Source: Octopus vulgaris (taxonomy: Eukaryota). From it: DNA of 64,000 nt. Where the stretch lies: the NCBI GenBank assembly GCA_951406725.2, contig OX597814.1, positions 125,612,001 to 125,676,000 on the forward strand. The letters run 5' to 3'. This document shows positions 8,411 to 64,000 of the stretch, piece by piece. A model generated the notes under the pieces. It ran no database searches. It was not told the DNA's origin and saw only the letters and a program-made list of their open reading frames with translations. The position numbers and the translations under genes were made by a program. Within the stretch, counting starts at the first letter, position 1; each line of letters opens with the position of its first letter.

Positions 8411-8559
8411 ATCAATAAATGGTGGGGTTGTGTTGACTGCACGTGGAGAAATGATAAGCAAGGAAAAATTGTAAAAATGCAGAATGCTAAATTGAAAGAA
8501 AATTTTAATGAAAATTTTCTTTCAATTTAGCATTCTGCATTTTTACAATTTTTCCTTGC
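8411..8559. repeat. Short fold-back insertion in (TA)n: 49-bp perfect inverted repeat plus unpaired tail
   Basis: Arms 8458-8506 and 8511-8559 are exact reverse complements around loop AATG; unique tail 8411-8457; (TA)n on both flanks. Confidence 0.9.
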
Positions 8560-8747
8560 CTATATATATATATACATATATATATATGAGAAAGTTGGTG
8601 TGTGAAAGCACGTGGTTGAATATATAGAAAATAGTAAAAAATGAAAAAACTACAGAAGGCTTGTTTTAAAAGGTAAAAAAATATATATTTGAGTCATTAT
8701 GTCTGAAGAATGTTATAATTTTTTTTCATACAATGACATAGTTTTTG

Positions 8748-8787
8748 AAGAAATGACCGGTTTCGCGTTCAGCTTTTCAAATTTCTT
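8748..8787 (-). ncRNA. Minimal type I hammerhead ribozyme, U3:A8 core variant
   Basis: Minus strand: AAGAAAU UUGAAAA GC-UGAAC-GC GAAA CCG GUC AUUUCUU; 7-bp helix I, palindromic helix III ACCGGU. Confidence 0.7.
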
Positions 8788-9144
8788 ACATCGTTATGTT
8801 TACGTTGAGAAGTGTGAAGAAAGAGTTCCAGATAAGGGGAGGTAATAAGTGATTTCTTCCGGTGTAAGGGAGATAATCGCTTAATACTTTTTGCCTTTTT
8901 TTTTGGAGTGAGTTTCTCTGTATAAGAATGTTGGAATGGTTCAGTTTGGGCTTGTATTTTTCAATGAAGAATGTTTTCTTGTTTAGTCTAATTTGTGTTG
9001 GTGTTCCGATAGCACATTGGTAAAATGGAAAGATTAAAAATTGTGGTAGTAGTTGCTTTGCGCATTTCTCAATGTGCTCACTAAAGGGTATCATTCTGTA
9101 TTCAACTCTTTCTTCACACTTCTCAACGTAAACATAACGATGTA

Positions 9145-9182
9145 AGAAATTTGAAAAGCTAAACGCGAAACCGGTCATTTCT
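9145..9182 (+). ncRNA. Minimal type I hammerhead ribozyme, U3:A8 core variant (inverted copy)
   Basis: AGAAAT TTGAAAA GC-TAAAC-GC GAAA CCG GTC ATTTCT. Confidence 0.7.
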
Positions 9183-9330
9183 CCAAAAATTATGTCATTG
9201 TATGAAAAAAATTTATAACATTCTTCAGACATAATGACTCAAATATATATTTTTTAACCTTTTAAAACAAGCCTTCTGTAGTTTTTTCACCTTTTACTAT
9301 TTTCTATATATATATATATATATATATACT

Positions 9331-59700: not shown

Positions 59701-60099
59701 CTGTTCCAATTCTTGGACATTTTTTGCCCACCAAGAATTTTTCATCTCACGCATTTTTTCTGTGTAGTTAAGGTATTTGTTAAACTATATGTAAAGAGAT
59801 CATTGATATCTAGTATATATCCGAGTATAATGTCTCTTCTTTAGAAAATCCAGAAACGACAAAACATTTTAAGTGCATTTAAACTTAGAGCTTGCGAAAA
59901 CAGAGGAAAGCAATGACCATGAAGTGACAGCATCAAATCATCTGCTGAAGAAACTCTATGATTCGTGAAACGCAAGCACTAAGATTGGTTTAATGAGAAT
60001 GATTCTCAAATTAAACCTCTCCTAGAAACTATGCACAAGAGTCACAAACTCACCAATACTCAGATCCCTATACAGCTTCTCTGGAAATAAGAATAAGCC

Positions 60100-60300
60100 A
60101 AAATATAGACAAATGGCTGAAGAAAATTGAAATAGAATGCCCGGTAGAACTGCAAGAGAAAGTTTGTCTCTTATGGACAGCAACGATTATCAGGAGGGTT
60201 CTAAGCACTTGAAAGATTGTTGGAAACTTGTGGATACCTAAGATTGCAGGTAGTAACCCGCTATCCACATAATTCCTCCCAGGAATAAGACAACCCGAAC
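60100..60300 (+). pseudogene. Second R4/Dong 3'-end fragment
   Basis: WLKKIEIECPVELQEKVCLLWTATIIRRVLST*, with a 3'UTR like that at ~58620, before (TAA)/(TGA)n. Confidence 0.75.
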
Positions 60301-60374
60301 CAAACCAAAATAAAAATGATAATAATAATAATGATGATGATGATGATGATGATGATGATGATGATGATGATGAT

Positions 60375-60885
60375 CCTTTCTACTAAAGGCACAAGGCCTG
60401 AAATTTGTGGGGAGGGGACCAGTCGATAACATCGACCCCAGTGTTTCATTGGTACTTAATTTATCGGTCCTGAAAGGATGAAAAGCAAAGTCGACCTCGA
60501 CAGAATATGATGTCAGAACGTAGTGGCAGACGAAAATACCGCTAAGCATTTCACCCGGCATGCTAACGATTCTGCCAATACTATTACTACTACTACTACT
60601 AATAATAATAATAATAATAATAATAATAATAATAATAATAATAATAATAATAATAATAATAATAATGATGATGATGATGATGATGATGATGATAATAATA
60701 ATAATAATAAAAATAGTAATTCTTTGTGCTATAGACTCAACGCCTGGATTTTTGTGGGGAGGAGGACAATCGATCACATCGACTCCAATACTTGACTGGT
60801 ACATGATTTATCGATCCTGAAAGGATGAAAGGCAAAGTCGACCTCGGTGGAAATTGAACTCAGAACTTGGACACGGACGAAATGG
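60375..60885 (-). mobile_element. Two SINE family B variants separated by (TAA)n/(TGA)n
   Basis: Family B central motif at ~60420-60520 and ~60770-60865. Confidence 0.8.
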
Positions 60886-63425
60886 CCTGATGCAGTATCA
60901 GGCAGTGGCACTCGTGACTTTTGGTCTTAACTGATTGGAAGTGTTACCATGTACATTATTTTGTCTTGGTATAAAAGATGGGCTACAGCAAATATTCGGC
61001 TCAATACCACAGATTTGTTTTTCAGTTGCTTAGCCTTAACCACGTAAGCATGTCCCTTAGTCGCGGTTAATATGTCCAACTATGATCATGAGCAAGAGTA
61101 GTGGGGGAGTATCATAACCATGTGCTGAGAGGAATTCTTTGGGGTTTGGATAACTCACCTCTTGAAACATGGGCATTCTATACATCATCCTTAAACAAAC
61201 GTTTTTCATGGACCTTTTGAGCGGGATGAGTTAATCAACGAAAATTCTAAATGGGCCCCACCTGCAAGATCATGCGCTGTTTATCTTGATATAAGGTTAC
61301 CATGTCGCGCGCATATGGTTGAGATGCATGTACCTGGTGTTCCATTATCAGACGGGTAGTTATGATGGATATATTAGACTTCGTATATTTGTACCCCATT
61401 GTCACTTTGATGGCATGCATTGCTCTCTCACTCAATAACAATAGTAATGATGATGATGATGGTGATGATGATGATGATGATTCCTTTTTTTTTTACCACT
61501 AGAGTCCAAGACATTGAGGACAATATCAAAAGACGAAATACAACACACAAACGGAGTAGAGTCTCCATTGATCAAAGGGAGACACTACGACTACAATGAT
61601 ATAAAAATAGAATTTAGGAAAAAAATTAATGAATAGAATCCCCATAGGGGAGTACTCTCCCGACTGTAATTCGGGGAAAACCCCACCCAGAAAGTCCAGG
61701 ATTATTCTGCTATCTCCAAGGCATGGGAAATACCATCTTACCGTTTCTTTCGTCCGACTTAAAAAAGCTTGCAACAGAGTAGTTCCATTCATCCTCAAAA
61801 GTCCTGCCACTCTTTTATTTGGTCTTCAGTGTGACATAAAGTCAAGAAGAATGATCAGACCATTGTCATGAACAGACTAATATTTCAGGTGATACTGGTT
61901 AGATTTGAACTCGGATATGAGTTTTCCTAAACACTACCAACGAATGTAAGGGTTTTGGTTGCATGATCTCCGTATAGTAAACGATATTTCTTCGATATAT
62001 ACAGACTGTGTTTTTGTATTGTTGAAAGAATCGAAATTGCACTGTATGTACCTAGGTTGCAATATGAATGACATCTGTATACGGAAGATTCGGGAGGTGC
62101 GAAGATACGTCAGGCAATGGAGTCCCAGACATACAGATGTAGGAAGGGCATTCATGGTTGCAATGCCTTTGTTTTTTAGGTCTTACTGTATCAGAACCAA
62201 CTAGGGACTAAACAACAATAACCATACTCTCCTATAATCAGAATATTTATCTATGTCAGTTCTGTGCGGCGATAAAGAATATAAGAAGCTGCACTGGTAG
62301 ACTTTTACTAATATTGCGGAACAATAATTTCTTATATTTGCATAAATCTATAACAGAAAGACACAGTCGATAAAATCGATCTCTGTAAATAATTGGTACT
62401 TATCTTAATTAATAGGGAAGTTAGGTAAGTAAATTTGCCAGAGAGTGTAAAGTCTAACACTTCGGGCATTGCCTTTCCTATGAGAGTGAAGACAAGAGAG
62501 AGAAAAGTGTGATGTTTTCGCTTGTAATCGAGGCGGGTATCGATCGTGAAGGAATAGAAAACAAAGTTGGCAGCATATAAAGAGCCGTAGCAAAACACCG
62601 CAGCACACTTTGTTTGGCGTTCTACAGAGTCTGTCATCATCCACCTTTAGCGCTGTGCTTAATAATAGAATATTAATTGAAAGATATTTCTCATACACAA
62701 TGTAAGATTATGTAGTATTTTTACTTTGGAAATCTAGCACAAACTATAAGAGATTAAACTCCAGCATCTTGTTTTATCATAATAATATATATTACTAGTA
62801 CATTGATAATGGCTCTGTGAATGCTACAACACAATATGGAATATATCTATAGATTTTAGCCTACATGGTATGTAGTAGTCAGTTGTAAATATCATAGCTT
62901 AATATACAATATTTTTCACGGACAGGAAGCCATATGAAATTCCAGCAAAGGGTTGAAATTAGTCTGGCTGGTCCTTTTTTTTTCTGTGGAGATACTGTAA
63001 ACGAGTGACGGCAGGTATGTGTTAGCCACCTTCATGCATAACAGGTGTAAATATCTTTTTATCGACTCAAGGCAAGTCTTAAAGAATGAGAGCACATTAT
63101 TGATGAGGAGGTGAAAGCGACGAAAGGACTTTGATAAACAAACAACCGATTGATTTTTTTGACCAACACATTAAACAAACGATCGATTAATTAATTGGTT
63201 TCATATTTAACCAATTAACTAACAATGGAAAATTGATATTGAACCAGTGTATGTGTTTATTATCATTGGCGCGATGGCCCTCCCAAGACACACGATTCAT
63301 TTCAACTCACGAATTCTCATCAAGACTCTTGCAAACCAAATACAAAAGCATAGGGTGTGTGTTTTATATATATATATATATATATATATATATATATATA
63401 TATATATATATATATATATATATAC

Positions 63426-64000
63426 GGTTAAGTAATTGAGATTCAAGTGAATTCTAAAGAATTCACATGAATATGGTCCTTAACTAGGATGCACCGGAAA
63501 TCTATATGGTGTTAACCATACGACAAGTGGGGTGATTACAAATAGGAAAAAAGCAACAAGAATGGATTAAAATCTCGGTACGATCGTTTCGTACGAGGAC
63601 ATCTTTAATAAGCTACAAAAAATGCAGTGATATGATAGTCACTTTGCTTTTACTCAGACTTTCCTCTACATGATATGGCAGTCACTTTGCCTCTTACTCG
63701 GATTTTCAGAAATTTTGCATGACTGTATCCGAAAATTTCTTCACACAACTTGATTAAAAATTCAATATGAGCTATATGTAGACATGCACAAATTCTGTAA
63801 GTTTAAAACCTTTCATCGGATCTCCATGAATCGAACATTCTTCAATGCAGTTAATCTTACAACCTCTTTTGTATCTACCCCTTTTGATGTTTGGGAATTC
63901 TCTGATGTTTTTTCGGCTGACGAGTACGAGCCATCTGTATTCACTGCATTTGTAGCTTATTAAAGATGTCCTCGTACGAAACGATCGTACCGAGATTTTA
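63426..64000. mobile_element. Fold-back PLE-like element (runs to window edge)
   Basis: Starts after (TA)n; tail 63426-63567; arm 63568-63630 is the near-exact reverse complement of ~63941-64000. Confidence 0.8.
63912..63994 (+). ncRNA. Type I hammerhead ribozyme with extended helix II
   Basis: TTCGG CTGACGA GTACGAG-(40 nt incl. CATCT/AGATG)-CTCGTAC GAAA CGATC GTA CCGAG; canonical core, palindromic helix III ACGATCGT. Confidence 0.88.

Follow-up and report, generated by a model that had tools for sequence, protein, structure and literature searches.

Truncated Penelope-like insertions and a probable retrozyme in the Octopus vulgaris genome that pair one long with one short end

Penelope-like elements (PLEs) that carry an endonuclease (EN) leave 5′-truncated insertions with a characteristic layout, and the inverted pseudo-long terminal repeat (pLTR), the tail, the bias toward (TA)n, the opposed pairs of hammerhead ribozyme (HHR) motifs and the U3-A8 variant of the ribozyme core are all already in print. 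The presence of a tail at one end only has also been published, qualitatively (PMC8557442, PMC3846280). The supplement on the Hydra clade of PLEs lists an octopus family, Hydra-1_Obim from Octopus bimaculoides, which carries an HHR and prefers (TA)n (Craig et al. 2021, PMC8557442). In vitro experiments with PAc Poseidon, a PLE of the anole, showed that two internal reverse transcription starts bound the tail, that both strands are nicked at AT-rich sequence and that insertion can dispense with HHR cleavage, and a dimer was predicted (Frangieh et al. 2024, PMC11167929). Studies of animal retrozymes without long terminal repeats (non-LTR retrozymes) argued for mobilisation by PLEs from co-occurrence and pLTR similarity (PMC7229834; 10.64898/2026.07.22.740005). 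Here we describe seven fold-back insertions, named E1 to E7 in order of position, in a 64-kb stretch of the 2.8-Gb genome of Octopus vulgaris (OX597814.1:125,612,001-125,676,000; hereafter the window), comparing them with these published systems.

In all probability, each of the seven fold-backs is a 5′-truncated insertion inverted head to head, and each comes from a multi-copy family of its own. Five of these families are linked to PLEs, one (E6) is unlinked and one (E3) is a non-coding 354-nt repeat that PLE enzymes likely mobilise in trans, with nicking, priming and cleavage as predicted steps. The finding is of a known kind: the PLE families, apparently of Neptune and Hydra type, are new, and a retrozyme is added to them. 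What we did not find in print is the rule that a long end is paired with a short one, and a retrozyme, E3, that obeys it; no count of such pairing and no paper on octopus hammerheads or retrozymes was found in a literature search that had subscription papers and bioRxiv supplements outside its reach. An octopus annotation lists Penelope-like families, and the words hammerhead and ribozyme are absent from its available text (PMC13282606). The insertions are as follows.

8410-8563, minus strand: E1, putative Neptune-type PLE stump; tail 8410-8453, arms 8454-8508 and 8509-8563; (TA)n on both sides
8588-9311, minus strand: E2, putative Neptune-type PLE; tail 8588-8619, arms 8620-8827 and 9104-9311; (TA)n on both sides
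8772-9103, minus strand: C-terminal part of a GIY-YIG endonuclease inside E2; 90% amino acid identity by tblastn to the open reading frame of locus L006
16111-16577: E3, retrozyme-like, non-coding unit of 354 nt inserted in inverted form; arm without a tail 16111-16357 (minus), arm with a tail 16367-16577 (plus); not flanked by (TA)n
25083-25322, minus strand: E4, very young putative Hydra-type PLE stump; tail 25083-25151, arms 25152-25218 and 25256-25322; (TA)n on both sides; internal 41-nt tandem duplication at 25177-25256
33949-34219, minus strand: E5, older putative Hydra-type PLE stump; tail ~33949-34075, arms 34119-34160 and 34178-34219; (TA)n on the left
35937-36410, minus strand: E6, old PLE-like stump whose open reading frame was not reached; tail ~35937-35998, arms 35999-36170 and 36240-36410
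63425-64000 and on to ~64028 beyond the window, plus strand: E7, young putative Hydra-type PLE stump; inverted part made up of the tail (63425-63536) and one arm (63537-63630), body running forward from 63629 to ~64028, then (TA)n; (TA)n on both sides

An earlier note on this DNA had proposed seven inverted-arm structures of unrelated sequence, and all of them were present where it had placed them, with arms 86-97% alike (E1 53/55, E2 201/208, E3 152/160, E4 66/68, E5 40/42, E6 150/175 and E7 88/97) and no blastn match among E1-E7 to one another. Its limits were mostly kept, the changes being the new span of E1, the tails of E3 (16527-~16577) and E6 (~35937-35998), which lie outside them, and the extension of E7; with these two tails counted, the unpaired tail that it had ascribed to most insertions is found in all seven. 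The (TA)n that it had noted at one or both ends flanks E1, E2, E4 and E7 on both sides and E5 on one side, while E6 has a short run on one side and E3 has none. The GIY-YIG C-terminus that it had seen inside one insertion is real. A genome-wide search with each element showed that all seven belong to multi-copy families of their own, the first-look candidates for E1 to E7 numbering 1689, 2361, 2857, 329, 3735, 507 and 979; 40 per family were scored, and these figures are not copy numbers. Judged by identity, the E1, E4 and E7 families are very young (98-100%), E2 and E3 lie at 92-98% and E5 and E6 are old (79-91%).

Every family has two discrete 3′ ends, a short one and a long one, and the difference between them is the tail of 32-127 nt, compared to 30-40 nt for PAc Poseidon, whose two internal reverse transcription starts these ends match. 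Among 50 outward-facing inverted pairs, 47 joined a long to a short end, none joined two long ends, one joined two short ends and two were untyped. With the E2 and E7 queries, which lack the tail, 20 of 22 pairs were long plus short, and loci in a single orientation divided into 14 long and 14 short; 20 of the 21 typed pairs being of this kind corresponds to p ~2e-5 at even odds (hand computation). Four E7 pairs initially taken as long plus long proved to be 47-nt hairpins inside the tail and were gone on recount. PAc Poseidon showed no strand difference in start site in vitro, whereas the inverted insertions described here pair one of each. The longer arm was the tailed one in eight of 15 E2/E7 pairs, the tail-less one in six and neither in one (E4, whose reference holds internal repeats, was left out of this test); in the window, E2 has the longer tailed arm and E7 the longer tail-less arm. 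The junctions overlapped by 1-9 nt in 12 of these 15 pairs. Because either arm can be the longer and the junctions overlap in this way, the arms appear to be two independently primed, truncated cDNAs that were joined.

The ends were followed by (TA)n in 22 of 29 cases for E1, 31 of 42 for E2, 25 of 29 for E4 and 21 of 28 for E7 (after eight matches to internal hairpins had been dropped), compared to 1.7% of window positions. The association was weak for E5 (17 of 63, with unreliable ends), E6 (2 of 28) and E3 (1 of 33, or 6 of 29 with a better reference). Thus, the targeting of TA microsatellites that had been proposed for the class as a whole is strong in four families and is not common to all. 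Other elements are inserted in the TA tract of the E5 untranslated region (UTR) at two loci (L190 and L197), which suggests that (TA)n tracts pre-exist insertion. In contigs of four other runs, the short and long ends of E4 were both followed by (AT)n, and one contig (X4) had a fold-back junction identical to that of the window copy. These contigs speak against fold-backs made by the assembly, the artefact that the earlier note had named as a possible undoing of its proposal.

Both halves of the proposal that many PLE lineages or retrozyme-like derivatives are present here hold, as five of the seven families could be tied to reverse transcriptase (RT) and GIY-YIG open reading frames (ORFs) of two PLE clades and E3 is non-coding and retrozyme-like. 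Judged from sequence motifs, E1 and E2 appear to be Neptune-type and E4, E5 and E7 Hydra-type. Upstream of E2, three loci (L005, L006 and L084) encode a thumb, a CX4CXXC linker (CGRPNCATC) and then the GIY-YIG domain (IYVIKC...YVG), in agreement with the CX2-5CxxC linker and C-terminal GIY-YIG of Neptune, with Nematis also compatible; upstream of E1, a sister ORF with thumb and EN, 49-64% alike in amino acids, occurs in four loci. E1 and E2 thus share the thumb, linker, C-terminal GIY-YIG, inverted pLTR and tail of the described Neptune-type elements, a clade call made from motifs for a group that is paraphyletic and whose linker Nematis shares (PMC8557442). The pLTRs of EN-bearing PLEs are direct or inverted, with an optional tail, and inverted arms and tails occurred in all seven families.

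The likeness of E4, E5 and E7 to the Hydra clade covers the C-terminal EN, the RW(K/R) and DKT motifs of the RT, the CxCX5C linker, the CxxC before the catalytic E and the CxH after the catalytic N without a CCHH motif, the HHR and the insertion into (TA)n, the last by the E4 and E7 counts given above (PMC8557442). The linkers and following motifs read CNCHDKTTC, CDLC and CMH in E4, CNCRPGTIC, CKFC and CNH in E5, and CNCRIKSKC, CQLC and CIH in E7, and the RT motifs read RIRWR and SDKT in E4, RIRWR and ADKT in E7 and RIRWK in an E7 relative (L127), this region being beyond the part reached for E5. In E4, direct pLTRs 5.2 kb apart flank the RT, the EN and a long, microsatellite-rich 3′ UTR (L093 and L094); E7 has an open frame of 1091 amino acids with RT, C-terminal GIY-YIG and two Asn-rich inserts (L095); in 10 of 30 E5 loci, an endonuclease is encoded upstream in the orientation of the element, and only the EN was reached. 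Compared to Hydra-1_Obim, these are other families with unlike N-termini (by eye). Furthermore, E4 (~5.5 kb) and E7 (~4.8 kb) exceed the length of Hydra elements, given as a tendency to be generally under 3 kb (PMC8557442), by virtue of Asn-rich ORF inserts or microsatellite-laden 3′ UTRs, and E7 has a long stem II; Asn-rich inserts are known from rotifer Penelopes (PMC3846280). Nematis was dropped as a candidate for these three families once the Hydra motif list matched, and Naiad, which has an N-terminal EN and no canonical HHR, was ruled out by the C-terminal EN and the HHRs. In Pfam, E2 gave only a sub-threshold GIY-YIG match and the Hydra-type proteins were unrecognised.

The E4 3′ UTR is a mixed TA/TG microsatellite of ~2.5 kb that includes an inverted repeat and is 94-98% alike between loci (L093:3850-6490), and the UTRs of E5 and E6 resemble it; elements of the E4, E5 and E6 type may spread their own target sequence through these UTR microsatellites. 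At a single locus, a full-length E7 copy (L095:104-8980) has a 2857-nt inverted duplicate that includes ~900 nt from beyond the 3′ (TA)n and is capped by a pLTR piece starting at HHR stem I, which looks like 3′ transduction of flanking DNA.

The E3 repeat has a unit of 354-355 nt with 43% GC, one HHR and no coding sequence, is found as monomers to trimers (a trimer in L097) and fits the definition of a non-LTR retrozyme as a tandem, non-coding unit of 150-450 nt with one type I HHR, as in the animal retrozymes described (PMC7229834; 10.64898/2026.07.22.740005). Among 16 loci not selected for the junction, nine pass the head-tail junction and continue in the unit before it, four start there and three start inside the unit, and none continues into shared foreign sequence; across 47 loci there was no shared ORF, and tblastn found only scattered, unshared PLE fragments. 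The 3′ ends of 29 of 42 segments fall at unit positions 171-179 or 223-233, and nine of 10 inverted pairs are long plus short. Because E3 shows the same two-ended, long-plus-short footprint, it is likely mobilised by PLE enzymes acting in trans. A word search of the available text of the two retrozyme papers gave no mention of tails or inverted insertions; unlike the evidence presented there, E3 shows the PLE footprint itself. A second, unrelated retrozyme-like family was seen at one locus (L304:2104-4768, OX597814.1:20002104-20004768), with units of 359 nt and with five HHRs in forward and two in inverted orientation; both of its ends, of which one is short and the other long, adjoin (TA)n, and tblastn gave no PLE ORF.

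How such insertions arise can be described as an asymmetric two-primer reaction, an account towards which we lean by a little, in which each nick is committed to a different RT start, tailed or tail-less, and in which E3 and the L304 family would be inserted in the same way from multimeric or circular RNA. In the wider scheme, which we hold to be likely, the GIY-YIG domain would nick the two strands of a target that is (TA)n or rich in AT. From each nick, reverse transcription would begin at one of two sites that lie inside the element, downstream of the HHR, the templates likely being two RNAs or two units of the same RNA. Each cDNA would end early, and short homologies, palindromes or hairpin stems would serve to join the two head to head. 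The template of E3 would be a multimeric or circular RNA, given that its copies are longer than one unit and extend across the predicted cut site. The predicted role of the HHR is the processing of precursor RNA; the ends of these insertions are not set by it.

Self-priming, in which a single nucleic-acid strand would fold onto itself at a palindrome and serve as template before the endonuclease trims one end, so that a tail remains on one side only, is a possible but distinctly less probable origin of the fold-backs. It was proposed in PMC3846280, with tail trimming in PMC8557442, and it directly predicts one tailed and one tail-less end. Symmetric junctions speak for it as well, in that three of five E1 pairs start at the same place on both arms and 11 of 29 5′ starts of E4 fall between −9 and −4 relative to the HHR core, which is the stem I edge beside an AGCT palindrome (loci L054-L072; window 25218/25256). 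However, in E2 and E7 either arm may extend hundreds of bases further upstream, for which the copying of a first strand would need a template jump, and both end types also occur in the single-orientation loci of these families. For E3 alone, one could suppose a dead pLTR that has multiplied in place as a minisatellite, a route of tandem amplification discussed in 10.64898/2026.07.22.740005, or movement by long interspersed elements (LINEs), as E3 has no sequence match to a coding family among the loci compared and its (TA)n bias is weak. Such an origin is improbable in view of copies dispersed over many contigs, scattered 5′ starts, two fixed 3′ ends without poly(A), and the consistent long-plus-short inversion. 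Inverted arms with TA flanks also resemble Tc1/mariner-derived miniature inverted-repeat transposable elements (MITEs), as is generally known, and the assembly has probable homopolymer errors in young repeats, which could raise the thought of fold-back artefacts. Both ideas are refuted by the links to RT and GIY-YIG ORFs and by spans that vary from 181 to >2000 nt within one family, leaving them hardly any probability; the arms, moreover, differ by substitutions, the tail is on one arm only, many copies are single-armed, and the independent contigs contain the same ends and junction.

Several observations weigh against the account of the two-primer reaction and of PLE families as its source. 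The E1 and E4 queries contained the tail, and only the E2 and E7 pairs are free of that selection. No autonomous partner for E3 was found among the loci compared. For E6, 28 loci showed no sense-strand PLE ORF within 1.5 kb upstream, what is shared there being a microsatellite-rich UTR; at a single locus (L133), a Hydra-type EN is encoded 600-900 nt upstream and may be particular to that locus, and the ORFs near E6 at two others (L127 and L296) are antisense. Finally, only the HHR segment of E7 folds better than shuffled sequences (z = −2.67), the other four of the five segments giving z values of 0.48, −0.28, 0.15 and −0.17.

A descriptor of the type I HHR that allows CUGA-N-GA, UUGA-N-AA and CCGA-N-GA cores gave five complete matches in the window, compared to 0.33 per 64 kb in shuffled sequence.

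8748-8787, minus strand: type I HHR of E2; U3-A8 core (UUGAAAA), stem I of 7 bp, predicted cut after 8755
9145-9182, plus strand: type I HHR on the inverted arm of E2; predicted cut after 9176
16279-16320, minus strand: type I HHR of E3; predicted cut after 16285
25170-25218, minus strand: type I HHR of E4; predicted cut after 25175
63911-63995, plus strand: type I HHR of E7; 57-nt stem II region, predicted cut after 63989

Whole or partial motifs had been claimed for six of the seven insertions, and this was borne out. In addition to the complete motifs above, E5, whose arms fold back within stem II, retains only the 3′ half, and E6 has a motif with a long stem II that is decayed on both arms (core at 36165, minus strand); the copy on the plus arm of E4 (core 25262) has a broken stem I, and the window copy of E1 is truncated downstream of the family HHR and is without a ribozyme motif. 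At the level of families, a type I motif lies near the 3′ end in every one, with stems that are wholly different between families and a conserved core and three-helix layout; the descriptor fitted 10/19, 24/29, 14/18, 19/19, 13/48, 8/18 and 19/19 loci of E1 to E7. The U3-A8 core is used by the E1 and E2 families, and long stem II regions (57-75 nt) occur in E6 and E7. The 5′ starts of copies did not pile up at the predicted HHR cut site; six of 24 E6 starts fell at −12 to −6 of the core. The type I topology, palindromic helix III, U3-A8 variant, extra base after A9, opposed pairs 100-700 bp apart and many families per genome agree with a 2014 survey of HHRs, and the differences are a helix III often of 2-4 bp, which would be compatible with predicted activity as a monomer, and the stem II length of E6 and E7. 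Among 150 of the 164 Rfam matches for the window, no hammerhead family was listed, and E1 sequences scored there as miRNA precursors, below gathering. A further HHR-like motif, also frequent, differs in its core (CUGU-N-GAAGAG...CUC GAAAC GU, by eye) and was seen at L073:1225-1290 and in L135, L190 and L193; in L135 it follows a Neptune-like endonuclease ORF.

The suggestion that the window carries an unusually dense load of these motifs did not survive comparison. Forty 10-kb stretches at round coordinates contained 29 matches in 14 stretches, or 4.6 per 64 kb (shuffled, 0.11), seven of the 29 coming from one array; with 5 per 64 kb, the window is no local hotspot; the 200 kb around it held four matches (1.3 per 64 kb). 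Extrapolation gives ~200,000 motifs genome-wide (bootstrap 98,000-329,000; 35-118 per Mb), compared to 2,000-9,000 per genome in the 2014 survey, which used a different descriptor. The 29 matches (L304-L343) represent >15 sequence families, many with stem II regions of 25-85 nt and a helix III of 3-5 bp.

In two E4 loci (L093 and L094), RT and EN are in different frames at a run of C, and exact matches in the genome numbered 132 with six C and 26 with seven, the frame break being present in most E4 copies of the assembly. The in-frame copies belonged mostly to an older subfamily; among 25 of them, 10 were dropped as divergent, and of the other 15, nine had >=15 differences and six lay on young haplotypes. 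The in-frame form was also present in contigs of all four independent runs, at full depth in X1 and X8 and at part of the depth in X4 and X11. Among the runs listed for E4 there was none of RNA, the RNA labels being guesses, which speaks neither for nor against expression. A programmed frameshift was therefore rejected, and the frame break is probably an assembly homopolymer error in near-identical repeats.

The window is otherwise rich in microsatellites and copies of short interspersed elements (SINEs), and E1 and E2 are neighbours within a single (TA)n tract that has SINE pieces of opposite orientation on its two sides (8180-8375 and 9330-9500). The sole protein match with a name was from Octopus sinensis, at 66%. 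One further member of the families described was absent from the earlier note.

26598-26803, plus strand: decayed pLTR fragment of the E5 family; 80% over 207 nt

A weak tblastn match to the E4 linker and endonuclease start (39107-39352, minus strand; 32%, E 6e-5) is a probable further Hydra-type remnant, and small palindromic duplications at 58025-58073 and 9732-9919 are unrelated to the seven families. From motifs in the ORF list, we take 1089-1556, 11246-12086 and 48236-49156 to be Mariner/Tc1-like fragments, 28254-28751 to be another transposase-like fragment, and 33027-33434 and 58964-59416 to be LINE RT-like fragments.

Stumps of this kind are easily mislabelled as MITEs or miRNA hairpins, as the Rfam scores of E1 exemplify. 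The O. vulgaris genome, with on the order of 200,000 HHR motifs of many families and with young, probably intact Hydra elements, provides test material, and the near-identical young families E4 and E7 supply proteins, along with RNA start sites that have been mapped, of a clade on which we found no biochemical work in the PLE literature searched. The pairing of a long with a short end provides a countable constraint on the mechanism of PLE integration, and a retrozyme with a PLE footprint bears on the question of which enzymes move animal retrozymes. If insertion is indeed a two-primer reaction that includes retrozymes, these copies would be direct genomic proof of the proposed partnership between PLEs and retrozymes.

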